Origin: a virus
Length of the DNA: 64,000 nucleotides
Strand: one strand, 5' to 3'
Virus record (IMG/VR): IMGVR_UViG_3300028571_000009
The notes under the pieces were generated by a model. That model worked only from the letters and a program-made list of their open reading frames with translations. It ran no database searches and had not been told where the DNA came from. Numbering within the stretch: position 1 is the first letter of the stretch; every line of letters begins with the position of its first letter. This document shows positions 3,962 to 38,410 of this stretch, one piece after another. The translations under genes were made by a program, and so were the position numbers.

Positions 3962-5200
3962 ATGACCGTATACCCTAAAATGCAATACTATCCGAGCTTT
4001 TCGACCGGCGAATTTGCAAACGACTGTAAAGACCCTAATAAGTTACTAGGAGGTAAACTTACTCCAAGATTCTACTCCAAAGAATTCCCCCAAGAATTTC
4101 AGCATCCATACTTCCTATTAACTGCGGGTCACTTATATAAGAAAATGGATATCCGCAAAACGATGGGCCTGGAGGATGCTCTAGTAATGGGTGATTCTGG
4201 TGGATATCAAATTGCAATGGGTGCAATGAAATGGGACATGTCCGTTAGACAGCAAATATTTGAATGGCTAGAAGCTAACTCAGATATTGCTATGAATATA
4301 GATATTCCACCCTACGGAGACATGACCGGTAAATTTGACGAATGTATTGATATCAGTTATGATAACTTTAAGTATTTCGAAAAAAATCAGACAGGCAAAA
4401 CTAAGTTCCTGAATGTGATTCAAGGTAATAACTTCCAGCAACGTCTTAAATGGTACGATAAGGTTAAAGACTTTGAATTCAAAGGTTGGTCATGTGGCGG
4501 GTGCCGTCTACCATATAGATTAGCGGCTAATATGACTGCCCTAATTGAAGGTAAAGAACACTTAAAGGACCGCAACGAATATCTTCACATATTAGGTACG
4601 ACAAAAATATCAGATTTCTTCTTCTTATCACAATTACAGAAATCATTGGTAGAAGTAGGTTCTAAAATGCGAGTTACAACTGATTCAAGCTCACCATCTC
4701 GGTCAGTAGCATTCGGATTGTATTATGTCGGTGCAAACCTTAATCTGGATACGTTTAAATCATTACATATTCCAAAAGCAATTTCTACTAATAAGGCGTT
4801 TGTTGCTCCGGATTGTTTACAAACAATCTTACCGCATCAACTAGATATGCCAATGCCAGCATCAACAGAATTTGATAAAATTATCAAAGGAATGTATACA
4901 TATGGTGACTGTGTGAATAATCTTAATGATAGCACAATGTTCATGACGTTGCATAATTTTATGCTATATCAGGATGTACAAACTGTAATTGCTGACTTCG
5001 TATATCATCATGACTATTTGCTTGAGCAAGTAACATCAAAAGATACATTCCACGTAATGCGAATATTAGATGAGATTATTAAGAGTGATAATCCGAGAAA
5101 GGTTCTACTGAAAAATGAATCGTATCTAATCGGATTGTCGACAGTAATCAATAATTCAACAGTTAAAGATAATAGTATTTCAGAATTTTTCACAGTATAA
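3962..5200 (+). CDS. dpdA: DpdA-like deazaguanine transglycosylase (TGT fold)
   Basis: DSGGYQ, NIDIP, VIQG, CGG, HILG, TDSSS, LHN motifs in TGT order; clustered with folE and queE. Confidence 0.8.
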   Translation: MTVYPKMQYYPSFSTGEFANDCKDPNKLLGGKLTPRFYSKEFPQEFQHPYFLLTAGHLYKKMDIRKTMGLEDALVMGDSGGYQIAMGAMKWDMSVRQQIFEWLEANSDIAMNIDIPPYGDMTGKFDECIDISYDNFKYFEKNQTGKTKFLNVIQGNNFQQRLKWYDKVKDFEFKGWSCGGCRLPYRLAANMTALIEGKEHLKDRNEYLHILGTTKISDFFFLSQLQKSLVEVGSKMRVTTDSSSPSRSVAFGLYYVGANLNLDTFKSLHIPKAISTNKAFVAPDCLQTILPHQLDMPMPASTEFDKIIKGMYTYGDCVNNLNDSTMFMTLHNFMLYQDVQTVIADFVYHHDYLLEQVTSKDTFHVMRILDEIIKSDNPRKVLLKNESYLIGLSTVINNSTVKDNSISEFFTV

Positions 5201-5634: not shown

Positions 5635-6486
5635 ATGCAGTCAACATTAGTAACATGTGCCATTTGTAATAAACAATACAAATATATAAATAATACACAT
5701 CTTAAACAACATGGTCTGACTATAAAAGAATACAGACTTAAATTCCCCGAGTCAATTATTTGGAGCAATGATTTACGTAAGATGTTAAACACCGCGCACA
5801 CCGGTAAATCATACGAGGAAATAATGGGAGTGAATAAGGCTACACAAATGCGAGAGTTGCGTCGAAAGAGTGCAATAGCACAAATGCTTTCAGCAGACCA
5901 AATTGCTATTCGAAAGGAAAAATGTGGCGCAGCAATACATTATACCGAACAGCGAAAACATAATATGTCAAAAGGTATAACCGCTGATACTATTTCTCAA
6001 AGACGTGCCACTATAGAAAAAATTTATGGTTCGTATAATGAATGTATGCGAAGAGCATTTCCGGGCGGTAGAACATCTAAGTCAGCTAAATCATATATTG
6101 AAAAGTTTCTTGTAGAGCGGAATATCAATCCAGAGCGTTGTATGTATGAAGGTGGAGGCGTTACTGGAAAGGAATTCTATCAACAAATCATGTTACATGG
6201 TAAGAAGAAATTTGTAATGTATGATTTAGTAGTGTTTAAGAATTTGGATTTTCACGAAATTGACCTTATATTAGAATTTAATGGCCCATATCACTTTAAA
6301 TTACTTGACGTAGAACGGACACCCGATTTAAAATCAGTATACTTTTTAGATAAATGTGAGACCGTTAAATACTCGTACGAAAAAGATATTGCTAAATTAA
6401 ATCATGCGTTAACATTAACGAACAACGTATACATATATTGGCAGAAAGATAAACAATTAATAAAATATGAAGGACTCAACTATTAA
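5635..6486 (+). CDS. putative free-standing endonuclease (N-terminal Zn finger, C-terminal PD-(D/E)XK/Vsr-like)
   Basis: CAIC...HLKQHG; YDL...LEFNGPYH; overlaps folE start by 20 nt. Confidence 0.6.
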   Translation: MQSTLVTCAICNKQYKYINNTHLKQHGLTIKEYRLKFPESIIWSNDLRKMLNTAHTGKSYEEIMGVNKATQMRELRRKSAIAQMLSADQIAIRKEKCGAAIHYTEQRKHNMSKGITADTISQRRATIEKIYGSYNECMRRAFPGGRTSKSAKSYIEKFLVERNINPERCMYEGGGVTGKEFYQQIMLHGKKKFVMYDLVVFKNLDFHEIDLILEFNGPYHFKLLDVERTPDLKSVYFLDKCETVKYSYEKDIAKLNHALTLTNNVYIYWQKDKQLIKYEGLNY

Positions 6487-7075
6487 ACTATCAAGTAAAC
6501 AAATTATTAAAGCTTCGAAAACTTTCGGTAAATTTCTAGTAGATTTAGGATTTACTGACTATTTACAGAATCCGCATATGGCTGATACTCCGATGCGAGT
6601 AACTAGAGCATATGTTGAAGACTTATTTAAAGGAATTTATACAGACCCCCCTAAGATAACAGCTTTCGAAAACACGAACGGGTATGACGGCCTAGTATTT
6701 CAGGGCGATATTGAAGTAAAAAGTTGTTGTAGTCATCATTTTCTCCCTTTCATTGGTAAAGCTCACGTGTCGTATATACCGGGCAAGGCTGACCAAGTTG
6801 TCGGCCTATCTAAGTTAAATAGAATTGTAGAATGGTTCGCCAGACGTCCACAGGTGCAAGAAAATTTAACAATGCAAATTCATGATTTCATTAATACCGC
6901 AATACCCGGTAATAAAGGCGTTGCAGTTGTTATTGGCGCCAAACATATGTGTGCATCTTGCCGCGGCGTTCGACATGATTCCACAATGATGACAAGCAAG
7001 TTATCCGGGGCGTATGAAACTAATGATGCCACTAGAAATGAATTTTATAAGTTTATCGAAATGTTACACAAATGA
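6467..7075 (+). CDS. folE: GTP cyclohydrolase I
   Basis: DTPMRV, SCCSHHFLPF, GLSKLNR, RRPQVQE, HMCASCRG. Confidence 0.95.
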   Translation: MKDSTIKLSSKQIIKASKTFGKFLVDLGFTDYLQNPHMADTPMRVTRAYVEDLFKGIYTDPPKITAFENTNGYDGLVFQGDIEVKSCCSHHFLPFIGKAHVSYIPGKADQVVGLSKLNRIVEWFARRPQVQENLTMQIHDFINTAIPGNKGVAVVIGAKHMCASCRGVRHDSTMMTSKLSGAYETNDATRNEFYKFIEMLHK

Positions 7076-8010
7076 ACGTATTAGTAGTAGGATTAGGTAT
7101 TGGTAAGTTATATGTAGAACAAGCCACAAAGTTAGGATGGTACGTCGACACAGTTGATGTCAACCCAAATGCCGGAGCCACATTTACATCAGTGCCAATG
7201 GATATGAAGTATGATTTGGGCATAGTATGTGTTCCGAATTATTTACATTTAGATATCGCAGCTCAATTAATTGCTATATGTGATAAAGTGCTAGTTGAAA
7301 AACCGGGCTTTGCCACTAAGCAAGAGTGGGTAGAATTCTCACAGCAGTATCCGAATAGAGTATTTCTAGTTAAGAATAACTGTTTCCGTGATATCTTCTA
7401 TGGTATGGGTTTGAACTTTGATAAGATTGAATCAATACATTTTAATTGGTTAAACAGAAATAGAGTTCCGAAACCGGGTAGTTGGTTTACAACAAAAGAA
7501 AAAGCATTTGGTGGTGTATCAAGAGATTTACTACCACATTTAATTCAGGCAGCCGTTGCAATGGTTAGATACGATATTGATAATTTAGCATTTGTCGGTG
7601 GAGTTAAACAACAGAATTTTGAATTGGCTGATATTGTGAAAGATAGTGACCGGCCCGGTAATTACGCATATGGTGAGATTGACCCGAATGGTACATATGA
7701 TGTAGATGACCTAACTCAGGCAGAGTTCCTGTATGGTGATGTTTCTATCATATGTACCGCGACTTGGAAAAGCAAGAGACGAATTTATGAATCACGATTA
7801 GAATGGGTAATACAGTTTAAAGATGGTACCGAAATGAAATATAACGCAGGATTGTGTCCTGATTATGCTTACGGTACAATGCTAGAAGCCATTATGCAAG
7901 AACAAGCTCCGGCCAATTTAGAAATTCACCGCAAAATGGACGAACTCGTTCATGAAGTGATTGACAATTTATTAGAAGTTACAAAAGAATTCAACCCAGT
8001 AAAAGTATGA
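7072..8010 (+). CDS. Gfo/Idh/MocA family oxidoreductase
   Basis: Rossmann VVGLGIG, LVEKPG, GGVSRDLLPH. Confidence 0.8.
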   Translation: MNVLVVGLGIGKLYVEQATKLGWYVDTVDVNPNAGATFTSVPMDMKYDLGIVCVPNYLHLDIAAQLIAICDKVLVEKPGFATKQEWVEFSQQYPNRVFLVKNNCFRDIFYGMGLNFDKIESIHFNWLNRNRVPKPGSWFTTKEKAFGGVSRDLLPHLIQAAVAMVRYDIDNLAFVGGVKQQNFELADIVKDSDRPGNYAYGEIDPNGTYDVDDLTQAEFLYGDVSIICTATWKSKRRIYESRLEWVIQFKDGTEMKYNAGLCPDYAYGTMLEAIMQEQAPANLEIHRKMDELVHEVIDNLLEVTKEFNPVKV

Positions 8011-8078
8011 AAGTAGAATTATTACATGATATTGTGTGATTTAGGCCTAACTTGCATATATTTATATAAAAGAATAAA

Positions 8079-8912
8079 ATGGAATCAATTTCATATGTAT
8101 ATGTGTATTTAGACCCTAGTAGCCCCGGTGAATTTAAGTATATGTCGAAATCTAAAGATATGATTTATGAATTTAATCATAAACCTTTTTATGTGGGCAA
8201 AGGAAGAAATTCACGCATGTATGACCATTTAAACAACAGTAGTATAATAGAGAATTATGCAAAACATCGAACTATACGGAAATTAGTTAACTTGTTCGGA
8301 AAATCCACCGTAAAGTCTTTTGTAATAAAATTTGCCGATAATTTAAGTAATGAGGCCGCGTTCGCTCTTGAGATTGATATGATTATGAGTATAGGCCGAT
8401 TAATAGATGGCGGACCGTTGACAAATATTTTAGTGGATTCAAATCTACCGCCCGATAATACCGGTGTAATTAGGGACACGGCTTATTGTGAGAAAATGCC
8501 ACGTACTAGACGCGGGGCAAATAACCCTAACGCCCTACTTACCGACAGCCAAGCAAAAGATATTTTCTTTGACCCGAGAACTATACCGGTTATTGCAAAG
8601 GAATATAGTGTCGCGCAGGGCAGAGTTCGTGATATAAAATTGGGACTATATTATGCTGATGCTACTGGGTTTAATGAAGGTAAGCTACCGAAACTACCAA
8701 TAAATAGTAAATATTTAGACCCTAGATATATCACCTGTGATGAAATACTAGATATTAAAAATTTAATCGAAATCAAAAACTATACATATAAACAAGTGCA
8801 GGTTGTACATAATTACAGTCTGGACTTTCTATTAAAATTAAAAAAATTAAGTTATGCAAACCGAACATACAAAAACAGAGACCGGTATAAATTACTTTCA
8901 TACAACCGGTAA
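8079..8912 (+). CDS. GIY-YIG-type (Seg/LEM-3-like) homing endonuclease
   Basis: YVYVYLDP...PFYVGKG...R; GANNPNALLT DNA-binding motif. Confidence 0.7.
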   Translation: MESISYVYVYLDPSSPGEFKYMSKSKDMIYEFNHKPFYVGKGRNSRMYDHLNNSSIIENYAKHRTIRKLVNLFGKSTVKSFVIKFADNLSNEAAFALEIDMIMSIGRLIDGGPLTNILVDSNLPPDNTGVIRDTAYCEKMPRTRRGANNPNALLTDSQAKDIFFDPRTIPVIAKEYSVAQGRVRDIKLGLYYADATGFNEGKLPKLPINSKYLDPRYITCDEILDIKNLIEIKNYTYKQVQVVHNYSLDFLLKLKKLSYANRTYKNRDRYKLLSYNR

Positions 8913-9816
8913 AAATGATATCATTGAATACACCGACGTGCAATTGCCCGAAATGCTAGAATCGCAAATCATGGTGAAAACTATTCTATGCGGTATCTGT
9001 CGAAGTGACATATTTGCATACGGTGGATTTGAAGCCCCCATGCCGTTCCTAAGACAGGGTCATGAGGGACTGGGCGAAGTCGTAAAGGTCGGAAGCGAAA
9101 TAACCGATGTAAAGGTCGGAGACCTAGTAGCTACCTTCTCAGACCCGGCCTACGCTACATATTATTATGCAGGTAAGGAAGAATACGCAATAGTTCCAGA
9201 AGCTACACCAAAATACATATTACAGCCAACGGCGTGTGCTATTAATATAGCACGTCGAACAACCAGAGCATGTATTTCATTGAATCAAACATATGTACCA
9301 AAAATACTATTGATAGGCACCGGCTTTATGAGTTTGGTTATTGGGCAATATTACAATCACTTCGGTATCAAATTTGATATCGTAGGCAGTGCTAATCCTG
9401 ATAAATGGGAGAAACTCGGAGCTAAGTTAAAAACTATGCAAGAAGTTCTTGATGCGAAAGAACAGTATGATGCCGTTATTGATTTATCTTCTAAAGCAAC
9501 CAATTGGGATATTATTCCGAAGCTTCTTAAGATAGAAGGTATAATGTGTTATGCGTCTACACCATACTCACCGGTAACAACCAATTTCTTTGAACAATGC
9601 TGGAACTGTTATTCCATTATCATGCCTAGTCCGAGAAACTCAGATTTCGGTGATGTAATGCGAACTACCGCTAAGCTAATTACATTAGGTGCAATTGACC
9701 CGAGCGAGTATTGGACAGCTGGATATAAACGCAATGATATCTACTCAGTATATCAAGGATTTCAAGATGGGTCCAATAGAACTCCGGAGTACATTAGGGG
9801 ATACCTTGAGTTTTAA
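8854..9816 (+). CDS. Zn-dependent medium-chain dehydrogenase/reductase
   Basis: CGICRSD, GHEGLGEV, VKVGD, IGTGFM; no structural 4-Cys Zn loop. Confidence 0.8.
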   Translation: MQTEHTKTETGINYFHTTGKNDIIEYTDVQLPEMLESQIMVKTILCGICRSDIFAYGGFEAPMPFLRQGHEGLGEVVKVGSEITDVKVGDLVATFSDPAYATYYYAGKEEYAIVPEATPKYILQPTACAINIARRTTRACISLNQTYVPKILLIGTGFMSLVIGQYYNHFGIKFDIVGSANPDKWEKLGAKLKTMQEVLDAKEQYDAVIDLSSKATNWDIIPKLLKIEGIMCYASTPYSPVTTNFFEQCWNCYSIIMPSPRNSDFGDVMRTTAKLITLGAIDPSEYWTAGYKRNDIYSVYQGFQDGSNRTPEYIRGYLEF

Positions 9817-9852: not shown

Positions 9853-10878
9853 ATGAAGTCAATATACATTGTCGATTTAGAGAGCATGGAAAGCCGTTAT
9901 ACAGTTGAATGGAAATGGCATTTGCCTGAGTTACTTAAAGAACATTTATATTCTACAAATAATGATGAATATTATGTAGAAGTTATAGAGGGTGATAATA
10001 ATATCCCTGAAGCTACTACACCGGGTGCATTTATAAATTTTGGTGGAACTAATATTTATAAATCATCACAATTAATTAAGATTGCAAAATTATTCTGTGA
10101 AGGAAAAATAGTACCCGGTAGTAAATTTCTATACACTGATGCGTGGAATCCTACTATATTACAAGTTAAGTACATGAGTGAGCTATTAGGTATTCCTGTT
10201 GAACTCCACGGAATATTTCACGCGGGTTCATACGACCCTCAAGATTTTTTAGGGAGACTAATTGGTGATAAACCCTGGGTCAGATATACAGAACGTGCTC
10301 TAATGTATTCATTAGATTATAGTTGGTTTGCGACTAAGTTCCATAAAGATATGTTTACTAATGTCTTTAATCCGTATCCAAAACATTTAATGATAGGTGG
10401 ATTGCCGTTTGAGTATTTAAAGGAGATTATCAAACCTGCACCGAAAAGAGATTTGATTTTATTTCCACATAGATTAGCACCCGAAAAACAGTTACCGGTA
10501 TTCAAAGCTTTAGCTGAAAGAATGCCCCAGTTTGAATGGGTAGTATGTCAGGAGAAAAATCTAACAAAAGAAGAGTATCATAAATTACTGGGAGAAGCTA
10601 AAATAGTATTCTCAGCAAATCTTCAAGAAACTTTGGGGATTAGTTGCTATGAAGGCGCGCTCGCTAATGCTATCCCATTAGTTCCGAACAGATTAAGTTA
10701 CACCGAAATGTATACGGATACATTTAAGTTTAAATCGGATAGTTTGGATGATATGGAAGCTAAAATATTGGATGTAATGAATTACTATCCAGATTACGTT
10801 GAAGAATTACCAAAACTAATAGATAAGCTGCAAGAGTTTTTCTGTGCAGATAAAATGCTTGCTAAATTAACTAGTTAA
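9853..10878 (+). CDS. GT-B fold glycosyltransferase (GT4-like)
   Basis: FHAGSYD, FPHRLAPEK, QETLGISCYEG (E-x7-E). Confidence 0.8.
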   Translation: MKSIYIVDLESMESRYTVEWKWHLPELLKEHLYSTNNDEYYVEVIEGDNNIPEATTPGAFINFGGTNIYKSSQLIKIAKLFCEGKIVPGSKFLYTDAWNPTILQVKYMSELLGIPVELHGIFHAGSYDPQDFLGRLIGDKPWVRYTERALMYSLDYSWFATKFHKDMFTNVFNPYPKHLMIGGLPFEYLKEIIKPAPKRDLILFPHRLAPEKQLPVFKALAERMPQFEWVVCQEKNLTKEEYHKLLGEAKIVFSANLQETLGISCYEGALANAIPLVPNRLSYTEMYTDTFKFKSDSLDDMEAKILDVMNYYPDYVEELPKLIDKLQEFFCADKMLAKLTS

Positions 10879-13762: not shown

Positions 13763-14146
13763 ATGAAACAAGAAAAGAAAGTACTTAATATGGTTACTAC
13801 CGTGGTGGTTAATCTTCAAGTGGAGGGTATACATAATTGGGCAGCGGCAAAAGAAGTATTTCCGGAAGTGTGTTTTTTATCCGACCCGCACCGGCATATA
13901 TTTCATATACAATTAAAGAAGCAGGTAACACATTCAGACCGCGACGTCGAATTTATTCTGTTCAAGCGCGATGTTCTAGAGTATTTATATAAGCAATACT
14001 ATTTTGAAACTCACCGAATTCATGATTTTGGTAGTAAAAGCTGTGAAATGATTGCAGCGGAATTATTGCAATTTTTTGATTGTACCTTTGTATCCGTATT
14101 TGAAGATGGTGAAAATGGTGCTGAAGTGTTTGTTCATGATATGTAG
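13763..14146 (+). CDS. dpdL: QueD-like T-fold protein, DpdL-type (putative CDG decarboxylase)
   Basis: LSDPHRHIF (LxxxHRHxF), SCEMIA, EDGENGA; lacks the QueD CxxxHGH motif. Confidence 0.6.
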   Translation: MKQEKKVLNMVTTVVVNLQVEGIHNWAAAKEVFPEVCFLSDPHRHIFHIQLKKQVTHSDRDVEFILFKRDVLEYLYKQYYFETHRIHDFGSKSCEMIAAELLQFFDCTFVSVFEDGENGAEVFVHDM

Positions 14147-15140
14147 ACATCCGCAACTATTTATTGTTATTGACCCAATGTGGGCGGGTGTCGGTTGGGA
14201 ACATGATTTGGAAAAAGTAATCATAGATTATCTAGCAAATCGGCCGGCAGTTATCCAAACAGTACAAACTGTTATAGGGCAAGATGCTATTAAAGCATTA
14301 TTTGACAATAATCAAGTTAAAAAGAATGCCGCGTTTCTATTTACTGAAGCCTCGTCTGATTTAGTGATACTTGTCAATAAGTTTTCAAAGCAATATAAGG
14401 TTCCGGTGTATACATTGGGATTCTGGAGACGGGGATATTCTGCTGAATACACCCATAACAGTTCGTGGGAACAGCATTGGTGGAAAGAATTCGACCGGGC
14501 ATGTTTTAAAGGCTTGGAACGTAATATATTTTCAGACGAATACTTTAAGCATATATTCACTAAACAAGTAGCAAAGAAGGGCTACCCATATAGTATAATA
14601 AAGTTTCCGATACCAGCATCTGTTATTAAGGAGCATTTATTATCTATACAACCGGTAGAGTTTAAAACGGATATGATATTGATAGATGGTGTACATTTTA
14701 ATCCTGAACAGCATAGAATGTTAGCATTACTGATGTCAGAGATGAAATTCGATAAACCAATATCAATTGTATTTGCTTATGAAAACGGTAGACCTACACG
14801 TGAACAATATGTGAAATGGTTAATGAATGCAAAGGTAGTAATCAACTTCGATGTACAAGGAAAGATTGGTGATGATGTATATGAATATTATGCGGCCAAA
14901 TGTATTCCGTTGTGTAATGCCCCAGAATTCTATGAGAATATTGTACCGGAAGAGTGGAGAATAGAAAAAGAATGGTTCGCTGATATCAGAGCATTTATTG
15001 ACGCTATGCCTATCCTTCGAAATAAGTTGTATGACGTACTTATGAATTATGATGAATTACGTCCCAAATTAGACTTTCAAGAAAAGCGGTTAAACACATT
15101 ATATTTCAACCATGAAATATTTCTTGAAAAATTCTATTAA
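14136..15140 (+). CDS. degenerate GT-B paralog of 9853-10878
   Basis: Colinear similarity to the upstream GT with catalytic motifs altered; ATG 14136 overlaps dpdL end. Confidence 0.6.
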   Translation: MICRHPQLFIVIDPMWAGVGWEHDLEKVIIDYLANRPAVIQTVQTVIGQDAIKALFDNNQVKKNAAFLFTEASSDLVILVNKFSKQYKVPVYTLGFWRRGYSAEYTHNSSWEQHWWKEFDRACFKGLERNIFSDEYFKHIFTKQVAKKGYPYSIIKFPIPASVIKEHLLSIQPVEFKTDMILIDGVHFNPEQHRMLALLMSEMKFDKPISIVFAYENGRPTREQYVKWLMNAKVVINFDVQGKIGDDVYEYYAAKCIPLCNAPEFYENIVPEEWRIEKEWFADIRAFIDAMPILRNKLYDVLMNYDELRPKLDFQEKRLNTLYFNHEIFLEKFY

Positions 15141-18802: not shown

Positions 18803-19010
18803 AGAACAATACGCTGTGTTTGAAAAAGAACCAGCACATGGAAGCGAAGTAAACGGTGTTATACTAGCCCCATTCTACACCAAAGAAGAAGCCGAACAAG
18901 CAAGACAAAAATACGGATATGGTAACGAAAATTATTACGTAGATAAAATGAAATTTGATGAAGTCCCTAGAAAAAGTAACAACTCGTACGATGACAAATA
19001 CACTAGATAA
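18795..19010 (+). CDS. hypothetical protein
   Basis: ATG 18795, MNKEQYAVF... Confidence 0.55.
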   Translation: MNKEQYAVFEKEPAHGSEVNGVILAPFYTKEEAEQARQKYGYGNENYYVDKMKFDEVPRKSNNSYDDKYTR

Positions 19011-20265
19011 ACAATACACAGACCTCCTCCAAGACATACTTGATAATGGAGTAAAAAAAGAAACGAGGAATGGTAAAACATTAAGTGTATTTGGCAGAAA
19101 CATTAGATATAAATTTAAAGATGGTAAATTTCCTTTACTTACAACAAAAAGGATTCCTTTTAAAACTATTGTAACTGAGTTATTATGGTTTCTAAGAGGT
19201 GATACAAACATCAAATACCTTGTTGACAACAATTGTCATATCTGGGATGGCGATGCTTATAAGGCCTCCCAGACTCGTAATGGTAAATGTTATTGTGGTC
19301 ATACATCGACTTGCGATTGTGGAGATATCTCGCAGAGTGAGTTTATTGAGCGAATCAAAAATGATGATGAGTTTGCTAAGACGTGTGGTGAATTAGGGCC
19401 AATTTACGGACGTCAATGGAGAAATTGGAATACAAATGCAATAAGTAGAAGAAGTTCTGGTACTATAAATGAAGATGGTATTGTAGAGAATATGATTTTT
19501 ATTGAAGATTCACCAATACATATAGACCAAATCGCAAACCTGATCAACGAACTTAAAACAAATCCAGACTCAAGACGATTAATGGTTAATGCTTGGAATG
19601 TAGGTGAATTAGATCAAATGGTTCTTCCACCTTGTCATTATGGATTTCAAGTTTATACAAGAGAGTTGAGTTTGGAAGAAAGGGAAAATTTGATGGATAA
19701 AATATATGGTTTAACAAAAGAAACCCGAATAGTACCTTGGAATATATTAGATATTAATAAAGCCAACATTCCAACAAGAACGTTCTCATTAATGTGGAAC
19801 CAACGTTCAGTAGACACATTCTTAGGTTTACCATTCAACATTGCTTCTTATGGTTTACTACTTGAAATAATTGCTAAAGCAGTTAATATGGTTCCTGATG
19901 AATTAATAGGAAACTTAGGTGATGTACACCTTTACAGTAACCATGTTGAACAAGCAAAAAAACAAATTGGTAGAGAGTTTACAGAAGAAGAAATACAAGA
20001 ACACTTAATGCAATCAGGTATGGATGCTTTGATGGAGAAACCAAGAATGGAATATATTTCCAAGCTACCAAAACGAACAAGAGAACCATTCCCATTACCA
20101 ACATTAAACATTAATACAGAATTCTGGCTCACCAAGACAGGTGAGTGTGGTGTTGGTGATTTGACTGATAATATCGATGCATTGATTAATGGGATGCAAG
20201 TCGAAGATTTCCAAATAGAAAATTATCAATCGCACGGGACAATTAAAGCACCGTTATCAAATTAA
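18991..20265 (+). CDS. thyA: thymidylate synthase with insertions
   Basis: ELLWFL, GPIYG, SRR, LPPCH, QRSVD, PFNIASY, GDVHLY, IKAPLS; ATG 18991 preferred. Confidence 0.95.
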   Translation: MTNTLDKQYTDLLQDILDNGVKKETRNGKTLSVFGRNIRYKFKDGKFPLLTTKRIPFKTIVTELLWFLRGDTNIKYLVDNNCHIWDGDAYKASQTRNGKCYCGHTSTCDCGDISQSEFIERIKNDDEFAKTCGELGPIYGRQWRNWNTNAISRRSSGTINEDGIVENMIFIEDSPIHIDQIANLINELKTNPDSRRLMVNAWNVGELDQMVLPPCHYGFQVYTRELSLEERENLMDKIYGLTKETRIVPWNILDINKANIPTRTFSLMWNQRSVDTFLGLPFNIASYGLLLEIIAKAVNMVPDELIGNLGDVHLYSNHVEQAKKQIGREFTEEEIQEHLMQSGMDALMEKPRMEYISKLPKRTREPFPLPTLNINTEFWLTKTGECGVGDLTDNIDALINGMQVEDFQIENYQSHGTIKAPLSN

Positions 20266-26323: not shown

Positions 26324-27709
26324 ATGCAAACAAAGAAAAAGAAAATTCTCTTGCTCTCCGACGACCTTCGTCTTAATTCGGGGATAGGAGTAGTATCCCG
26401 AGAATTAGTATTAGGTACATGTCACAAATTTGATTGGGTACAACTAGGTGCCGCGATTAAGCATCCTGAATCAGGTAATGCGGTCGATCTAAGTGAATCA
26501 ATCCGAAAAGATTTCAATATCCCAGACGCATCAGTCAAAATATATCCATCCGACGGATATGGTAATTTAGATGTAATCAGAAATCTTATTAATATAGAAC
26601 AACCTGATTGTATCTTGCACTTCACCGACCCGAGATTCTGGACATGGTTATATGCTGGTGAACATGAATTGCGTCAATCATTACCCTTAGTATATTTGAA
26701 CATTTGGGACAATTGGCCCGCACCGATGTGGAATAAACCATATTACATGTCCTGTGATATGCTGATGGGTATTTCTAAACAAACTGTAGCAATGAATAAA
26801 GCCGTCCTTAAGGGTGAGGGATACATGGATTGGCAATTGCCGTACTTACCACACGGTATTAATGATAAAGTATATTTTCCGATACGTCAGGAAGATACTG
26901 AAGCATATGCTGAAATGCAAGCTCACCGGACAAAGATGGGGATTGCGGAAGATGACTTCGTAGTATTTTATAATGCTAGAAATATTAGACGTAAACATAC
27001 TTCTGATGTTCTATTAGCATTTAAGGAGTTCGTTAATGTATTGCCAAAAGAAAAAGCGAATAAATGTGTGTTACTAATGCATACACAACCGCTTGATGAA
27101 AATGGTACTGACTTATACGCTACACAAGCCGCATTACTTCCAGAATGTAGAATCATATATTCTAGTACCCAGGTACATCCTAAGGTATTAAATTATGCAT
27201 ACAACATTGCAGATGTAACTATTAACCTAGCCTCTAATGAGGGGTTCGGTTTAGGTACGGCCGAATCAGTGATGGCCGGTACACCAATTATCGTAAATGT
27301 AACCGGTGGATTGCAAGACCAATGTGGATTTAAGAAACATGATGGTTCATTTCTAACGGTAGATGATTACTCAGAAGAGTGGGGTAGTAATAATGATGCG
27401 AAGTATAAAGAATGCGGTGATTGGGCCTTCCCAGTATTTCCCGCAGTTCAAACTATGCAAGGTTCTATACCAACACCATACATATGGGACGATATAGCTT
27501 CATATAAAGATGCAGCTGCAAGGTTACTTGAAGTGTATGAGTTGGGATATGAAGAACGAAAAGGTCGTGGATTAGCCGGTCGCGAACATTTCCTTAAGGA
27601 TGAAACAATGCTAAGTGCTGTCAATATGAGTAACGCATTTATCAAGTATATTGATACAGCATTAGAGCAATGGACACCAAGAGAAAGATTTACATTAGAA
27701 TTAGTATAA
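26324..27709 (+). CDS. glycosyltransferase, GT4-like
   Basis: SDDLR..SG, PHGIN, RNIRRK, EGFGLGTAES. Confidence 0.85.
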   Translation: MQTKKKKILLLSDDLRLNSGIGVVSRELVLGTCHKFDWVQLGAAIKHPESGNAVDLSESIRKDFNIPDASVKIYPSDGYGNLDVIRNLINIEQPDCILHFTDPRFWTWLYAGEHELRQSLPLVYLNIWDNWPAPMWNKPYYMSCDMLMGISKQTVAMNKAVLKGEGYMDWQLPYLPHGINDKVYFPIRQEDTEAYAEMQAHRTKMGIAEDDFVVFYNARNIRRKHTSDVLLAFKEFVNVLPKEKANKCVLLMHTQPLDENGTDLYATQAALLPECRIIYSSTQVHPKVLNYAYNIADVTINLASNEGFGLGTAESVMAGTPIIVNVTGGLQDQCGFKKHDGSFLTVDDYSEEWGSNNDAKYKECGDWAFPVFPAVQTMQGSIPTPYIWDDIASYKDAAARLLEVYELGYEERKGRGLAGREHFLKDETMLSAVNMSNAFIKYIDTALEQWTPRERFTLELV

Positions 27710-27716
27710 TAAAGTT

Positions 27717-29051
27717 ATGGAAAATAAAGACAAACAACTATTAGTGATGGTTTCTCCCATTGCAGCTGTCTCAGGATACGGTTCACGTTCTAGAGATTTA
27801 GCCCGCGCGATTCTGGCACTGGATAAATATAATGTACAATTTATAAGCACCCGATGGGGTGGTACACCACTCAATGCATTGGTATCAGGTCAGGATGATG
27901 ATATCATATCTAGATTAGTGGCTAATGTAACTACACAGCCGGATATTTTTATTCAGGTATCAGTACCTAATGAATTCCAGGCAATTGGTAAATTTAATAT
28001 CGGTGTAACAGCTGGTATCGAAACCACAATGTGCGCAGCCCCTTGGCTAGAAGGTCTGAATAAAATGGACCTGAATATAGTTCCGAGTCAACACTCGAAG
28101 CATGTATTCGAGATTAGTAAGTATGATAAAGTGAATAATAACACCAAACAAAAGGAAGGTGAATTAGCTCTTATCAAACCCATTGAAGTTCTATTCGAGG
28201 GTGTGAATCTCAATGTATACAAAAAGACTGATGAGCTTAATAAGAGTATCTTAGAGCAAATGTCAGCCGTTAAGGAGCAGTTTGCATTTCTCTTCACGGG
28301 GCATTATATGGTAGGTGATATGGGTGAAGATAGAAAGAATGTCGGTATGATGATTAAGTGCTTTTTAGAGGCATTTAAGAATGTAACCGTAGCCCCGGCA
28401 TTAGTATTAAAAGTTAGCGGCGGAACATTCTCTCATATTGATAGATTAGAATTACTACGTAAGATTAACATGATTAAGAAATCTGTCAAAGCTACGCGAC
28501 TTCCGAATGTGTATCTATTACATGGTGATTTAACTGAGTCAGAAATGAACTCATTAAACATGCATCCGAAGATTAAAGCCCATGTCACATTAACTAAGGG
28601 TGAAGGTTATGGTAGGCCGTTAGCAGAGTTTGCTATGACAGGAAAACCAATTGTAGCGACTAATTGGTCAGGACATATTGATTTCCTGAATAAGGATTAT
28701 GTTACATTGATTCCAGGTAAGTTAACGCCTGTACATAAGAGTGCGCAATGGGATAATGTTATCATCAAAGATTCGCAGTGGTTTACAGCTGACTATGGAG
28801 TATTTGTTGCGACTCTCCGGGACATGTATAAGAATTATGACAGCTACTTAGAAAAGTCTAGAAAAATGACCAAGTATATGAAGGATAACTTCTCTTGGGA
28901 CATCATGAAAGATAAACTAGGTGAAATTCTCGGTAAGATTCCGGCGTTTCCTAAAGCAGCTCAACAAATACAATTACCACAATTGAAACGTGTCGGTGAT
29001 ATTCCGAAGATTAATTTACCAAAACTTAAAAAAGTAGAAAGTGCGGCTTAG
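27717..29051 (+). CDS. glycosyltransferase, GT4-like
   Basis: SGYG, RKN, GEGYGRPLAE, SGHIDFL. Confidence 0.85.
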   Translation: MENKDKQLLVMVSPIAAVSGYGSRSRDLARAILALDKYNVQFISTRWGGTPLNALVSGQDDDIISRLVANVTTQPDIFIQVSVPNEFQAIGKFNIGVTAGIETTMCAAPWLEGLNKMDLNIVPSQHSKHVFEISKYDKVNNNTKQKEGELALIKPIEVLFEGVNLNVYKKTDELNKSILEQMSAVKEQFAFLFTGHYMVGDMGEDRKNVGMMIKCFLEAFKNVTVAPALVLKVSGGTFSHIDRLELLRKINMIKKSVKATRLPNVYLLHGDLTESEMNSLNMHPKIKAHVTLTKGEGYGRPLAEFAMTGKPIVATNWSGHIDFLNKDYVTLIPGKLTPVHKSAQWDNVIIKDSQWFTADYGVFVATLRDMYKNYDSYLEKSRKMTKYMKDNFSWDIMKDKLGEILGKIPAFPKAAQQIQLPQLKRVGDIPKINLPKLKKVESAA

Positions 29052-29559
29052 TTACTCTATACTAACTCACAATGAGGGTGAGTCAATTGAAACTCTATTG
29101 AGTTTCTTAGTGGAGTTTAAAGATTCTGAGGATGAAATTGTCGTTGTAGATGATTACTCAGATGATGAATTAACTTTACAAATACTTAAGGATTATCAAA
29201 GTAATAAACACATTAAGTTATTTCATCGCGCACTTAATAAAGATTTCGCTTCGCAAAAGAACTTCTTAATGAGCAAATGCACGGGCGACTATATTTTTAA
29301 TATAGATGCAGATGAGCAAGTATCGCCAGAATTTATCATTAACTTAAAAGATATTTTAGAACTAAATCCTGATATTGAGCTATACGCAGTGCCACGAATA
29401 AATATTGTTACTGGTATAAATGACGGACATATTAAAAAATGGGGATGGCATGTAACTTCTAATGAACGGTATATACAAACGGTAGAATTTGATTTAGATA
29501 ATCCAATTGATTTAGCTCAATTTAACATGTTAACGAGTAATAATTTAATAATTAATTAA
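29041..29559 (+). CDS. GT2 glycosyltransferase, N-terminal half of a split gene
   Basis: THNEG, VVDD, DFASQKN, IDADE, PRIN. Confidence 0.75.
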   Translation: MRLSYSILTHNEGESIETLLSFLVEFKDSEDEIVVVDDYSDDELTLQILKDYQSNKHIKLFHRALNKDFASQKNFLMSKCTGDYIFNIDADEQVSPEFIINLKDILELNPDIELYAVPRINIVTGINDGHIKKWGWHVTSNERYIQTVEFDLDNPIDLAQFNMLTSNNLIIN

Positions 29560-29610
29560 TAGCAACGGTCAGAGTCTATATTGAATTTATATTTCTATAT
29601 TTATACATGT

Positions 29611-30270
29611 ATGGAGATTGTATATTCTAGAAAATGCCCTAAATGTGATTCAACTATTTCGTATAAGGGCGGAAAACATGGCAAGTATGCATGCAGAAAT
29701 GCAGCCGCGGCAGGTAAATTATGTAAAAAATGCATGATGCTCGGGAAGTCTCATAAAGAACGATGGGGCACGCAATATGATGTAATAACAGCTAAACGAA
29801 ATATAAGTTTACAAAATACCCCACATTGGTGGCAAGATAAAATAGTAGATGCCCGACATAAAAACGGAACATATGTTATTAGCGAACGACATAAAGATAT
29901 CTTAAGAATTGTATCAAAATTTTGTAGCAGGGGAGCAGAACATATTCATATTAAGAAAATTCTTATTGAACAAAATATTACATGGGATGAATATAAATCA
30001 GCGTCGTCCGAATATATGAATTATTGTAGAGATGTTGCATATTGGACAAATAGGAGCGGATATACATTATTAGAACATCATGATAAACGTGGTAAAGCGG
30101 GAACATTGGGAGCATATCAACTAGACCATATTATAGAGAAGTCTGTGGGGTTTATCAATAATATTCCCGCGGAAGTAATTGGCCATATATCAAATCTTCA
30201 GTACATACCATGGGAAGAAAATCTAAAAAAACGAAGATACCCCGGAGGTATGAAAAATAAGAAACTATGA
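29611..30270 (+). CDS. HNH endonuclease inserted within the GT2 gene
   Basis: N-terminal CPKC/CKKC; C-terminal YQLDHII...NLQYIPWEENLKK. Confidence 0.7.
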   Translation: MEIVYSRKCPKCDSTISYKGGKHGKYACRNAAAAGKLCKKCMMLGKSHKERWGTQYDVITAKRNISLQNTPHWWQDKIVDARHKNGTYVISERHKDILRIVSKFCSRGAEHIHIKKILIEQNITWDEYKSASSEYMNYCRDVAYWTNRSGYTLLEHHDKRGKAGTLGAYQLDHIIEKSVGFINNIPAEVIGHISNLQYIPWEENLKKRRYPGGMKNKKL

Positions 30271-30494
30271 GAAAAACTGTAACCTTTTACACGCCAATTA
30301 TTAACTTTCCGGACTATCAATATCGTTTAATGAAACGATTACCGGATATTAAATGGGCCGGGCATGTACATGAAAGGCCGAGTAGTAATTCTAGAAAACT
30401 CAGTGTCGGTGTGATACCAGATGAATTTGCATTAGAACATCATAAATCTATCTCGAGGCAAGAACAACAAAATAATTTTTACGATAGTATATGA
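30267..30494 (+). CDS. GT2 glycosyltransferase, C-terminal half of a split gene
   Basis: NFPDYQYR, W.GHVHE, LEHHK. Confidence 0.7.
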   Translation: MRKTVTFYTPIINFPDYQYRLMKRLPDIKWAGHVHERPSSNSRKLSVGVIPDEFALEHHKSISRQEQQNNFYDSI

Positions 30495-31171
30495 AACCGG
30501 AAGAACAACAAATTCGAGAATATAACCTTTACATGACAGCATTTAAAGGGTTTGATATAAATCGTATAGATATTATAAATCATCTTATAACTAAGTTTGG
30601 TTATACTGACTACTTAGAAATAGGTGTTCACGGTGGTCACTGTATTCGTAACATTTACGCGTTACGAAAGGATGGTGTCGACCCTGGGGCAGAAACTAGA
30701 ATACCGCCAGAAGTTAATTATCCAATGACATCCGACGCCTTCTTCGAACAAATATCTGCTGATAAAAAGTATGATATCATCTTTATCGATGGATTACATC
30801 ATGATACTCAGGTGTATAAAGATATTAAGAATGCAATGCTACACCTTAACGAAGGCGGAACAATTGTATGTCATGATATGAGCCCGAACTGGGAGATTAA
30901 TCAACGTAAGAGACCTGTTCCGGGCGTTGGGGCATGGAATGGCGATTGTTGGAAAGCATGGGTGAAACTTAGAACTGAATTAACTGACTGGTCTATGGAA
31001 GTGGTTAATACTGACCACGGGGTTGGTATCATTAGAGCTGGTCACAATAAACCGCTACCATTTTATGGTGATGCGTTTAATCTAGATTTTGATTATTTAG
31101 ATGATAACCGAAAGGAGGCATTAAATCTAATATCAGTAGAAGACTTCTTCAACAAATACAGCAATGATTAA
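30491..31171 (+). CDS. class I SAM methyltransferase (Methyltransf_24-like)
   Basis: YLEIGV, GVDP, DIIFIDGLH, IVCHD. Confidence 0.8.
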   Translation: MKPEEQQIREYNLYMTAFKGFDINRIDIINHLITKFGYTDYLEIGVHGGHCIRNIYALRKDGVDPGAETRIPPEVNYPMTSDAFFEQISADKKYDIIFIDGLHHDTQVYKDIKNAMLHLNEGGTIVCHDMSPNWEINQRKRPVPGVGAWNGDCWKAWVKLRTELTDWSMEVVNTDHGVGIIRAGHNKPLPFYGDAFNLDFDYLDDNRKEALNLISVEDFFNKYSND

Positions 31172-32204
31172 AATTAAGCTTTATGAGTTAGATAAGCATC
31201 GGAACGAATGTACGTTCCGGCCTTACTTATACGCCGCAGAGTCCTTACGGGAAGTTGGTATTGAATTCACAGAAGGGGATTCATATGATTATGCATGGGT
31301 CGCTCAAGCGTCTTTCATGAATAAGAAAGTATCATTAGAACAATCAGTAGATGATGGTTTAGAATTTCTATCCAAAATTACTGGCGATTATATGTTAATC
31401 GATGGACAGGATTCAACATCGTTAATGGGTTCATATGAAGTATTTACCCAATCTGATGCATTACTACTGTTGAAAAATAGTTTACTTAGGGACCGGACAC
31501 TTTATAAGACCGGATGGAACCTAGGAAGAAATTATTGGGGCATAGGCGATTACAAATTACCAGACTTCGATAAATATTCAGACCAAATAGTGCTGTCAGG
31601 TACTAACTGGTTACTTACACATTGGGCTGGTACTAATGGAACGCCGTGGTCTGAGATTAAACGTCATAGACCGTATGATGTTTCTGCTATGTTTCAATAT
31701 CCTAGTTTATCTGAGTCATATGAGCACGGTCAACTACAGAATGTATTCTATGATAACTTTAGAAAGCCTAGCATTGATATCATAAATCAATTACCGTATA
31801 AAGTAGCTAAACTCGAAGCGGGTGTTAGAGTTTCACAACAGGAATATTACAATAGAATGTATAATTCAAAAATAATATTTGCTCCGTATGGGTATGGTGA
31901 AATGGCTCCACGTGATTTGGAAGCAGCTTATTTCGGAGCAGTACTGATTAAGCCTGATATGAGTCATATTCAGACATTACCAGATATATTTACCGATGAA
32001 ACATATGTCGCGTGTAAACACGATTTCAGCGACCTGCGAGAAAAAATAGATATGATTCTTGGTGATTACGATAAGTATACTTATATTGTGGAAAGAGCTA
32101 GGCAACGTATTCATACAGCAATGGACCCGGACATGGTGGCTTGGACTATTTATAAGTTATTTAAACAATTACCGAATGTTACCGAAGTTAGCACTAATAG
32201 TTGA
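31164..32204 (+). CDS. glycosyltransferase-like protein
   Basis: SKIIFAPYGYGEM..RD.E, LIKPD C-terminal GT-B pattern. Confidence 0.65.
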   Translation: MIKIKLYELDKHRNECTFRPYLYAAESLREVGIEFTEGDSYDYAWVAQASFMNKKVSLEQSVDDGLEFLSKITGDYMLIDGQDSTSLMGSYEVFTQSDALLLLKNSLLRDRTLYKTGWNLGRNYWGIGDYKLPDFDKYSDQIVLSGTNWLLTHWAGTNGTPWSEIKRHRPYDVSAMFQYPSLSESYEHGQLQNVFYDNFRKPSIDIINQLPYKVAKLEAGVRVSQQEYYNRMYNSKIIFAPYGYGEMAPRDLEAAYFGAVLIKPDMSHIQTLPDIFTDETYVACKHDFSDLREKIDMILGDYDKYTYIVERARQRIHTAMDPDMVAWTIYKLFKQLPNVTEVSTNS

Positions 32205-33114
32205 TAAGGCAAAACGAGAATCATACGAGATTCATGATGATAAAAGTTATCTATTAGGAACTAATACCCCATATTCATTCCAGCATTCAATCGGTAATGA
32301 GTGTCACATAGGTTTCTGGTCATACCCTAAGTTATTCGGTGATGGATACTTTATTAAGGTAGATGAAAGGCCGCTTCCGGCTCTAGAATTAGATGTTATT
32401 ATACTTGCCCTAGAAAGTGAGAAGTGGAAAGAGTATCTAGCTAAGGTGCGTAAGGCATATCCTAATGCTAAGATAGTCGGTACAATTAAAGAGCTTTCTA
32501 GTTATAAGTATGAATTTTTAGAAAGCTGTGATTACATCGGGTTACAATATTCTAACGTGGCGAATATCCTCGGTTCAGGAACGAGAGACCGAAACAATCT
32601 ATTCTGGTTACCGCAGCCTGTTGATATTGAATTTTTACGAAGCCGTTACATAACTGATAGCAAGGAAGTAAAACTCTTTTGTTACGAACACCACGCATCA
32701 AGCAGACGAGGCAGAACGTCAGAGTTCTGCAGATACATGGCTGAGAAACACCATATGCAGGTTACGACTGCAACCACAACCGGAGATAATCAAACTCAAT
32801 GGGCCAGCTTTATAGATACATGGAAGGATTGTTTATTTCACGTGAACCTAGACCCTGAGTATCAGTTCGGACAACAAGCAACACAATGTGCAGCATTGCA
32901 GACAATCAATATCGGTGGACTGAATGATTCACACTTTAAGTTATTTCCGAAGACTGCGACTAACGATTTCGATATTTTAGAAACAGAATTAATTAGACTT
33001 GCCACAGATGCTTCATACACGGCGGAGACAATGCAATATGCGTATGACCGAGTAAACAAGTTATATTCTATACCGGCCGTTGCACAAACATTACTTAAAA
33101 ATATTACGGGATGA
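32176..33114 (+). CDS. glycosyltransferase-like protein
   Basis: PQPVD, FHVNLD, GQQATQCAAL; ATG 32176 preferred. Confidence 0.55.
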   Translation: MLPKLALIVDKAKRESYEIHDDKSYLLGTNTPYSFQHSIGNECHIGFWSYPKLFGDGYFIKVDERPLPALELDVIILALESEKWKEYLAKVRKAYPNAKIVGTIKELSSYKYEFLESCDYIGLQYSNVANILGSGTRDRNNLFWLPQPVDIEFLRSRYITDSKEVKLFCYEHHASSRRGRTSEFCRYMAEKHHMQVTTATTTGDNQTQWASFIDTWKDCLFHVNLDPEYQFGQQATQCAALQTINIGGLNDSHFKLFPKTATNDFDILETELIRLATDASYTAETMQYAYDRVNKLYSIPAVAQTLLKNITG

Positions 33115-33386
33115 AAATAGGATTTATAGTCACCGCACATTACTCAAATGAATATAGACCGAATGGTGATAAATTCTTAGGTAATTTTATTACATCATTA
33201 CGTGAAAGTATGGAGTGTCCATACTCGCTGTACATAATCGATAATGGGTCGTCAAACATGCTTACAATAGATGACACATCTATTACTACGACAATACGGA
33301 TAACCGACCAGACTCAGGAAGGTATCACAGGAGCATGGAATACCGGTCTGGTGGACTTCTCTAATCAAGTAACTTTGGTTGATTAG
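33111..33386 (+). pseudogene. truncated GT2 N-terminal fragment
   Basis: IIDNGS and GAWNTG, then runs into the promoter at 33375; no DxD half. Confidence 0.55.
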
Positions 33387-33403
33387 TATATTTTTCTTAT
33401 ATT
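33375..33403 (+). promoter_or_regulatory. promoter TTGG-N19-TATATT, ATG 6 nt downstream
   Basis: Family consensus. Confidence 0.65.
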
Positions 33404-33409
33404 ACAGTT

Positions 33410-34588
33410 ATGAATAGAATAGAATTTTTAGATTTAGGCAAGCAGCCAATCGCTAATAGGTTTGTATACGCTAATGAAGTTGGTGATGAATATTTTTATC
33501 ATCTACGAGTTGGTATGGACTCTGATACTAAGTTAATCACTCATATGGAATATGTAGATTCGCCAATGATGTTTAACGAAAATTATGCATACAGGGGGTC
33601 GATGTCCAGAACGATGGTTAATCATTTTGCTGATTTTAGTAATACTATTAAAGCCGCTATATCGCCGAAAAATGTGTTAGAAATAGGGAGTAACGACGGC
33701 GTATTTTTAAAAAATTGGTCGAGCGGAACTACATACGCCGTCGAGCCGTGTAGTAATTTTGCTAAAGAAACAAATGATTTAGGATATAAGACCTACCATA
33801 GTTTCTGGAACGTAGCCCTATCAGAGCAAATCAAAAAGGAGCATGGTACCATGGATATGGTGTTCGCCGCTAATTGTATGTGTCACATTCCTAATTTGGA
33901 TGATGCCTTTGAGGCGGTATACAATATATTAAGCCCTGGTGGTCGGTTTATATTTGAAGACCCGTCGCTTGCTCAAATGCTTAATAGTAATTCATATGAC
34001 CAGATATATGATGAACATCCACATATCTTTTCAGTAATCGCGTTGAATAATATATTAGCCCGGCATAAAATGCAAATTGTTAGAGTAGATAACATATCAG
34101 TACACGGTGGTTCGAATAGAATATACGCGGCTAGAATAGAAGATAATGTAAAAGTTGAATCAAGTGTTCAAGATAACATTACATTTGAAACTATTATGGG
34201 GTGTGATAGTTTGATAGAATTAGGACAATTTGCCAGACGCGTTTTACAATCTAGTAACGATTTATATGCGTTGTTAGCTAAATGTAAAAATGCTGGTAAG
34301 AAAGTTATTAGCTATGGCGCCACATCAAAATCAACTACCGTATTCAATTATAGTGGTATTGACCCGGAATTAATATCATATGTTATAGATATAACACCAG
34401 AAAAGATTGGTAAGTTAACTCCGGGCAGTCATATACCTATTGTAAATGAACCGCGAATACCTAATGATGTGGATTATGCATTTTTAGGTGCATGGAATTT
34501 TGCCGCGGAAATATCAAAAAAAGAGTCGGAATTTATACAGCGCGGAGGAAAATTTATCACCCATGTACCAATTGTAAAATTTATATAA
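33410..34588 (+). CDS. NDP-hexose C-methyltransferase-like
   Basis: LDLGKQPIAN, LEIGSNDG, YDEH, HGGSNR, YGATSKS, AWNFA. Confidence 0.85.
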   Translation: MNRIEFLDLGKQPIANRFVYANEVGDEYFYHLRVGMDSDTKLITHMEYVDSPMMFNENYAYRGSMSRTMVNHFADFSNTIKAAISPKNVLEIGSNDGVFLKNWSSGTTYAVEPCSNFAKETNDLGYKTYHSFWNVALSEQIKKEHGTMDMVFAANCMCHIPNLDDAFEAVYNILSPGGRFIFEDPSLAQMLNSNSYDQIYDEHPHIFSVIALNNILARHKMQIVRVDNISVHGGSNRIYAARIEDNVKVESSVQDNITFETIMGCDSLIELGQFARRVLQSSNDLYALLAKCKNAGKKVISYGATSKSTTVFNYSGIDPELISYVIDITPEKIGKLTPGSHIPIVNEPRIPNDVDYAFLGAWNFAAEISKKESEFIQRGGKFITHVPIVKFI

Positions 34589-34589
34589 T

Positions 34590-35386: not shown

Positions 35387-35393
35387 AAATATT

Positions 35394-37680: not shown

Positions 37681-37717
37681 TTAATTTTACACGTCAACTT
37701 AAAATTTTTACTGCGGT

Positions 37718-38407: not shown

Positions 38408-38410
38408 CCT

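Follow-up and report, generated by a model that had tools for sequence, protein, structure and literature searches.

We analysed a 64,000-nt stretch of viral DNA from IMG/VR record IMGVR_UViG_3300028571_000009 (hereafter the window, meaning the whole stretch) and found that two of its dehydrogenase genes, one of the Gfo/Idh/MocA fold (7072–8010) and one of the medium-chain dehydrogenase/reductase (MDR) superfamily (8854–9816), are a single virus-specific redox cassette. The surroundings, judged by their gene content, are a branch of the phage 7-deazaguanine pathway that lacks QueC, contains the QueD paralogue DpdL and is extended by a glycosyltransferase (GT). Comparison with related phages indicates that the pair is an optional add-on of this GT-bearing module, placed downstream of or parallel to the GT and not a prerequisite for it. 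The two enzymes may well oxidise a sugar hydroxyl with NAD+ and re-reduce the product with NADPH, either ahead of the transfer of the sugar or following it, although we regard this as plausible and still short of probable. What is new is the definition of the pair as a virus-only cassette, its distribution and its presence in the Pseudomonas phage PA5oct, as well as the reasoning by which we class it as an add-on.

The two genes behave as one unit across viral genomes. Homologues of the Gfo-like protein in the protein collection numbered 703, and 468 IMG/VR stretches encode the protein; we analysed 80 loci together with that of PA5oct (81 Gfo-centred loci) and based the counts of immediate neighbours and of adjacency on the 72 distinct loci that contain both genes. 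The MDR gene was found in 80 of the 81 loci, the sole miss coinciding with a contig end, and it directly adjoins the Gfo-like gene in 62 of the 72, with the other ten having an insert at the junction. In the window this insert is a GIY-YIG gene (8079–8912), which bears out the preliminary description's statement that only a mobile nuclease separates the pair. No homologue of this gene was found at the Gfo/MDR junction of the other loci, and a single tblastn match lies elsewhere in the module, in locus L098. One clade instead has a second GT4-like glycosyltransferase (PF00534, 448–467 aa) between the two genes, giving the order Gfo > GT' > MDR > GT (L043, 8875–10221; L065, same coordinates; L078, 8908–10311). 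On two long contigs, G008 and G009, the deazaguanine cluster lacks the pair, which lies ~100 kb away and is still adjacent.

Two further sets of neighbours were observed around the pair. In five loci a SulP-family permease gene (PF00916, E = 1e-46 to 1e-50, ~400 aa) stands between the Gfo-like and MDR genes (L008, 8822–10045; L042, 8855–10030; L059, 8834–10024; also L087 and L155); a transporter inside a DNA-modification cluster was unexpected. On contig G008 (L165, 2683–12849) and in L166, the pair lies in a run with genes for a cupin, a 360-aa radical S-adenosylmethionine (SAM) protein and a 2-oxoglutarate (2OG)-Fe(II) oxygenase, with a class I methyltransferase gene on the opposite strand. 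None of these neighbours was found in any other locus, and the cassette has no third gene.

Based on profile matches and a predicted structure, the open reading frame (ORF) at 7072–8010 encodes a Gfo/Idh/MocA-fold dehydrogenase, and the fold is not in doubt. Searches with the single sequence gave weak Pfam matches at threshold (PF01408, 24.2 bits against a cut-off of 24; PF22725, 24.3 bits against 27). A family profile built from an alignment of 27 homologues matched Gfo/Idh/MocA enzymes among solved structures, the best being DgpA (7xr9, E = 4.6e-12), with EKP aligned to EKP and G147/G148/D152/H156 aligned to GGGPLIDIGTH. The AlphaFold model (pLDDT 86) starts with a beta-alpha-beta unit, and Foldseek aligned it to Gfo/Idh/MocA structures (E = 1e-13, TM 0.64–0.71), including levoglucosan dehydrogenase, DgpA, scyllo-inositol dehydrogenase, GenD2 and KijD10. 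The hallmarks of the family are present: an N-terminal Rossmann domain with a GxGxxG-type loop, the EKP lysine and a C-terminal GG-x3-D-x3-H motif. Among the 27 sequences, G7/G9/G11, D29, K77-P78-G79, G147-G148, D152 and H156 are invariant, as are the motifs GxGxG and GGVSRDxxPH, and E76 of the EKPG motif is replaced only once, by Asp. With GxGxG, EKP and D-x3-H intact, the protein looks catalytically competent. The invariant D29 lies at the end of beta-2 and, by general Rossmann-fold rules, suggests the use of NAD.

The ORF at 8854–9816 encodes a short Zn-dependent MDR enzyme that looks catalytically competent. It matches the GroES-like domain PF08240 (46.5 bits; cut-off 23.5), contains the Cys-His-Cys catalytic zinc ligands of this domain and the zinc motifs CGICRSD and GHE, and has the family-invariant residues C49, H70, E71, C128, G155 and G157-F158 (the last three forming the GxGF coenzyme loop); C128 is aligned with the third zinc-ligand Cys of the yeast-type alcohol dehydrogenase (the ILCAG cysteine). 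The four-Cys structural-zinc lobe is absent: only a short stretch follows GHE, and its cysteines form no cluster. This lobe is also missing in some MDR branches, such as that of BchC, and its absence does not exclude membership of the superfamily. The C-terminal Rossmann coenzyme domain is recognisable from the invariant G155-x-G157-F158 and from a second HMM stretch that aligned to residues 168–344 of 5vm2; PF00107 was not detected in the protein. An Atlas model of the protein had TM values of 0.82–0.88 to clusters of full-length MDR enzymes (threonine, sorbitol, iditol and glucose dehydrogenases), and the top PDB sequence matches were plain alcohol dehydrogenases. The best full-length NCBIfam alignment was to BchC (E = 1.6e-9, residues 24–305 against 13–299 of 308), with a score of 37 bits that is far under the family cut-off of 291. 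An acidic residue never follows the invariant G178 in the family, which under the same general rules suggests that the enzyme resembles NADP-dependent ones.

The window has a GC content of 35% and derives from an uncultured T4-like lake phage; all of its genes are on the + strand, and a family-B DNA polymerase gene is present. The preliminary description had placed two dehydrogenases of different folds between folE and the GT gene, and its coordinates were exact and its folds correctly named. It was also right about the deazaguanine context, as FolE, a divergent QueE, a TGT-superfamily protein and DpdL are all encoded nearby. The genes in and around the module are:

1–711, + strand: QueE-like radical-SAM protein, 5' end truncated at the window edge (NCBIfam QueE models, E = 2e-6)
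3962–5200, + strand: candidate DNA transglycosylase of the TGT/DpdA superfamily, with invariant GDSGGFQ, LNVxQG and HxLG
6467–7075, + strand: FolE, GTP cyclohydrolase I (PF01227, E = 7e-53)
7072–8010, + strand: Gfo/Idh/MocA-fold dehydrogenase of a virus-restricted family, 312 aa (profile, motifs and predicted fold)
8079–8912, + strand: free-standing GIY-YIG homing endonuclease gene (PF22945, LEM-3 GIY-YIG, 36.5 bits against a cut-off of 27)
8854–9816, + strand: short Zn-dependent MDR dehydrogenase without the structural-zinc lobe, 320 aa (PF08240, zinc ligands)
9853–10878, + strand: GT-B (GT4-like) glycosyltransferase (AlphaFold model and Foldseek; no Pfam match)
13763–14146, + strand: DpdL homologue, a QueD paralogue and proposed 7-carboxy-7-deazaguanine (CDG) decarboxylase, with invariant FLxxPHRHxF

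The pair is not distributed independently of the dpdA-like gene and the GT gene, in contrast to the pattern that the preliminary description would have counted against its reading: within 8 kb, the TGT-like gene was found in 66 of the 81 Gfo-centred loci and the GT gene in 64. Immediately upstream (≤1.2 kb) lies the TGT-like gene in 44 of the 72 distinct loci and folE in 8, as in the window, where the ATG of the Gfo-like gene overlaps the folE stop codon (ATGA). The downstream neighbour is DpdL in 41 of 72 and the GT gene in 16. At least six different gene orders hold the pair within the module, often with the MDR stop beside the GT start; examples are tgt > G > M > DpdL > GT, folE > G > M > GT > polB > DpdL, folE > DpdL > G > GT' > M > GT > tgt and polB > G > M > GT > tgt (G, Gfo-like; M, MDR). 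The MDR gene lies directly ahead of the GT gene in several gene orders that are independent of one another. Pairwise identities of the Gfo-like protein correlate with those of other module genes (0.5–0.77); this reflects common descent and was not used as evidence. The three complete or near-complete IMG/VR relatives, together with PA5oct, all encode the GT and the TGT-like protein besides the pair; five more fragmentary contigs lacking the pair (21–39% complete) were uninformative.

The dehydrogenase-pair family is essentially virus-only. Among 185,579 species genomes we found only two hits, both on contigs of metagenome-assembled genomes (MAGs). One of these (L168, PAOW01000007.1, labelled as a Methanobacteriota archaeon MAG) has the gene order polB > tgt-like > Gfo > MDR > DpdL > GT, which is the full order of the phage module, and is almost certainly a mis-binned phage contig.

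Several lines of sequence evidence place the module in the QueC-less, DpdL-type branch. The ORF at 1–711 can be aligned with the annotated QueE proteins of PA5oct and phage ACP17 and has the motifs TGGEP, ETNG and SPK in common with them, which identifies it as a divergent QueE. The DpdL homologue is 46.6% identical to CGPG_00067, the DpdL of Cellulophaga phage phiST, and its FLxxPHRHxF motif fits the published signature LxxxHRHxF, which stands in place of the CxxxHGH of QueD in this proposed CDG decarboxylase (PMC10516641). No PF06508 (QueC) match was found in the window ORFs, and in ten related records, some of which are complete, none reached the cut-off. The window ORFs also contained no QueD; of five long relatives, four, among them the two near-complete ones, encode a canonical QueD (PF01242, E ~1e-15) at another location. 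Replacement of QueD by the pair was considered and rejected because the complete relatives have the canonical enzyme. The TGT-like protein matched TIGR00432 and PF01702 weakly. In ACP17, the gene that occupies the DpdA position, ahead of the GT gene as in other DpdL loci, encodes a protein 22% identical to it; a comparison with phiST DpdA3 gave an hhalign probability of only 61%, and a profile search against PDB sequences gave no match. For the ORF at 9853–10878, neither Pfam nor a profile search against PDB sequences returned a match. Its AlphaFold model (pLDDT 89.6) was matched by Foldseek to BshA, MshA and glycogen synthase (E = 5e-12 and below), and on this predicted structure it is a GT-B, GT4-like glycosyltransferase, an assignment supported by Atlas clusters that carry PF00534.

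The closest described system is that of phiST, in which the dDG (7-deazaguanine deoxynucleoside) pathway consists of FolE, QueD, QueE, DpdL and DpdA3 (Cui, Hutinet et al. 2023, PMC10516641). The window module resembles it in the QueC-less gene set, in DpdL, in the TGT-like gene and in its location beside the DNA polymerase gene, but phiST has no GT, Gfo-like or MDR gene, and the TGT-like protein is only marginally similar to DpdA3. DpdL occurs without the GT in phiST, the DNA of which contains dDG.

Among cultured phages, which gave no megablast match to the window locus, only the PA5oct-like Pseudomonas jumbo phages encode the pair. In PA5oct (Wroclawvirus), EST35_0362 and EST35_0363 are adjacent and in the same order as in the window, while the TGT-like, GT and DpdL genes lie beside polB (EST35_0316–0318), with QueE nearby (0322); unlike in the window, the pair is 25 kb from the module. 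The window and PA5oct proteins are 25% (Gfo-like), 29% (MDR) and 46% (GT) identical. The published evidence for a modified G in PA5oct is indirect: its DNA is reported to resist several restriction enzymes that have G-containing sites, and the paper offers no chemical identification (PMC12191111). The annotation of the same genome (L082, 2596–7822) shows a DNA polymerase gene that is interrupted by a gene for a Hef-like homing endonuclease and lies immediately ahead of the TGT-like, GT and DpdL genes.

The add-on argument rests on phages that have the GT and DpdL but not the pair. These are ACP17, Phosso and Xanthomonas phage BUDD: the Gfo profile had no match in the whole genomes of ACP17 and Phosso, and tblastn gave no Gfo or MDR match in BUDD. 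GT-centred loci likewise present the same module with or without the pair, which is inserted between the TGT-like gene and DpdL. Since the GT and DpdL occur without the pair, the acceptor of the GT does not depend on it.

The preliminary description had offered two roles for the pair, the first being the synthesis of an unusual NDP-sugar donor for the GT. Sugar chemistry of this kind fits best, because in both cases the nearest characterised relatives work on hydroxyls of sugars or polyols. It is further favoured by the adjacency to the GT gene and by the second GT in one clade. The combination of an NAD-type Gfo-like enzyme, an NADP-type MDR enzyme and sugar-acting relatives favours oxidation followed by re-reduction, that is, epimerisation. 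In the scheme that follows we infer the substrate, which way each step runs and which cofactor each enzyme prefers. With NAD+, the Gfo/Idh/MocA-fold enzyme would turn a secondary alcohol on a pyranose, probably one of the C-3 type, into a ketone, which the Zn-MDR enzyme would then reduce from the opposite face with NADPH. The sugar that the GT places on the modified guanine would thereby become an unusual epimer via a keto-sugar, and the point of action could be either the NDP-sugar donor or the sugar already on the base or DNA.

Known enzymes offer partial parallels to this scheme. The glycoside and sugar C-3 dehydrogenases DgpA (7xr9), levoglucosan dehydrogenase (6a3f), GenD2 (6nor) and KijD10 (3rc9) have the same fold and retain the EKP lysine and the Asp/His residues, but the phage protein is shorter (~290–315 versus 330–380 aa), is only 12–18% identical to them and is partnered with an MDR enzyme and not with an aminotransferase or lyase. 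IolG (NAD+) and IolW (NADPH) convert myo- to scyllo-inositol through oxidation and re-reduction. The phage pair would follow a similar logic at a ring carbinol, with an NAD-type oxidase matched by an NADPH-type reductase. The resemblance is functional only, as the phage reductase is a Zn-MDR enzyme and not a second Gfo/Idh/MocA enzyme, and no cyclitol genes are present.

A number of points weigh against epimerisation of a sugar for the GT. No substrate has been established for any member of either dehydrogenase family, the 12–18% identity to sugar dehydrogenases is at the level of fold or superfamily, and MDR enzymes that act on NDP-sugars are rare. The pair lies 25–100 kb from the module in G008, G009 and PA5oct. 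The locus counts given above are not independent events, since T4-like phages inherit part of their gene order. No fused Gfo–MDR or Gfo–GT protein was found, which is weak evidence. Lastly, the window GT is 46% identical to the GT of Phosso, which lacks the pair, and likewise to that of PA5oct, which has it; no shift in the donor pocket is therefore evident, a slight hint against a changed donor.

In an improbable but more specific version of the sugar chemistry, the GT would attach a sugar to 7-deazaguanine in DNA, possibly via C7 or C8, and the pair would epimerise this sugar on the polymer through a 3-keto intermediate. These attachment points are proposed because dDG has no hydroxyl and its pyrrole ring is electron-rich. 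If true, this would mark the first time that a purine analogue is glycosylated in DNA and that dehydrogenases edit a sugar there.

It is similarly unlikely that the pair is an auxiliary metabolic cassette outside DNA modification, which would serve host sugar or polyol metabolism or remove the acetaldehyde released by QueD, and which happens to sit in a variable region near replication genes. The distant location of the pair in PA5oct, G008 and G009, with cupin, radical-SAM and 2OG-oxygenase genes as neighbours in the two contigs, would suit such a role, as would the unrelated inserts that split it (SulP permease, homing endonuclease) and the alcohol dehydrogenases at the top of the PDB matches of the MDR protein. 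Both dehydrogenases are also acidic (pI ~5.3) and have no sign of DNA binding; the TGT-like protein is likewise acidic, however, and the isoelectric point was dropped as a way to distinguish enzymes that act on DNA from those that act on small molecules. A metabolic role is harder to reconcile with a family that is virus-restricted and distant from cellular enzymes, with the GT and TGT-like genes that accompany the pair in the three complete or near-complete IMG/VR relatives and in PA5oct, and with its re-association with the module in at least six gene orders.

The second role offered by the preliminary description, the creation of a 7-formyl or 7-hydroxymethyl handle for glycosylation, is disfavoured. 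Here the pair would interconvert a carbonyl and an alcohol on the C7 substituent of the deazaguanine, as in a step from 7-formyl to 7-hydroxymethyl, and would thereby provide the hydroxyl that an O-glycosyltransferase needs and that 7-deazaguanine does not have. With QueC not found, the pathway would end at the C7-carboxy compound; a free carboxylate, however, is reduced by neither fold, the pair is not accompanied by any gene for adenylation or activation, and removal of the carboxyl is the role proposed for the DpdL homologue (PMC10516641). The alignment of the MDR protein to BchC, which oxidises a 1-hydroxyethyl group on a pyrrole ring, is suggestive, but its score is far under the cut-off, and the relatives of the Gfo-like protein are sugar C-3 dehydrogenases. 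ACP17, Phosso and BUDD have the GT and DpdL without the pair, and so the acceptor cannot depend on it. Taken together, we consider this explanation quite unlikely.

Pterin chemistry is very unlikely. In this reading the pair would act after FolE and before QueE on the polyol or diketo side chain of dihydroneopterin triphosphate or of a 6-pyruvoyl-type tetrahydropterin, and the product would be an altered QueE substrate or else a pterin for glycosylation by the GT, comparable to the biopterin glycosides of bacteria. Polyol and ketone substrates suit both folds, two carbonyls would need two reductases and folE overlaps or immediately precedes the Gfo-like gene in the window and in 8 of 72 loci, but a canonical QueD in four of five long relatives leaves no gap between FolE and QueE, most loci have the pair between the TGT-like gene and DpdL, away from folE, and the polB neighbourhood and the DNA-transglycosylase-like gene indicate DNA as the target.

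Modification of DNA with 7-deazaguanines is a main phage route of escape from restriction. To our knowledge, eight 7-deazaguanine DNA bases are known, none of them with a sugar, and no known pathway employs dehydrogenases; our literature search found no paper on this dehydrogenase pair or on glycosylated 7-deazaguanine. Glucosylation of hydroxymethylcytosine in T4 and the post-replicative hypermodification of thymidine are comparable in that phage bases are decorated by a GT or by several tailoring enzymes and thereby evade host nucleases, but the base considered here is a purine analogue, and a dehydrogenase pair is not known in those systems. The cassette ties dehydrogenases to a glycosyltransferase in the QueC-less branch, across hundreds of uncultured T4-like and jumbo phages. 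PA5oct, a therapy-relevant Pseudomonas phage, offers named genes and proteins for testing the pair. Under epimerisation of a GT-transferred sugar, a sugar adduct would be expected that differs in isomer or oxidation state according to these two dehydrogenase genes.

Elsewhere in the window, a 362-aa ORF at 14052–15140 overlaps the 3' end of the DpdL gene and is ~20% identical to the GT. It has a 58%-identical homologue in locus L003 and no Pfam match, and may be a degenerate GT paralogue. A thymidylate synthase ORF at 18955–20265 encodes 436 aa, of which residues 19–343 match only 227 positions of the Pfam profile; this suggests that it carries an insertion or an extra domain.

A separate deoxysugar-type cluster occupies 26324–43867, in which neither RmlA nor RmlB was seen (nor elsewhere within the window). 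Its genes, all on the + strand, are listed by position:

26324: GT1 glycosyltransferase
30491: methyltransferase
31164: GT-like protein
33410: sugar C-methyltransferase
34590 and 34952: RmlC/FdtA-like proteins
35394: 2OG oxygenase
36045: RmlD-like protein
36748: DegT aminotransferase
42647: GT2 glycosyltransferase

This cluster could supply a sugar donor, or it could decorate something else.

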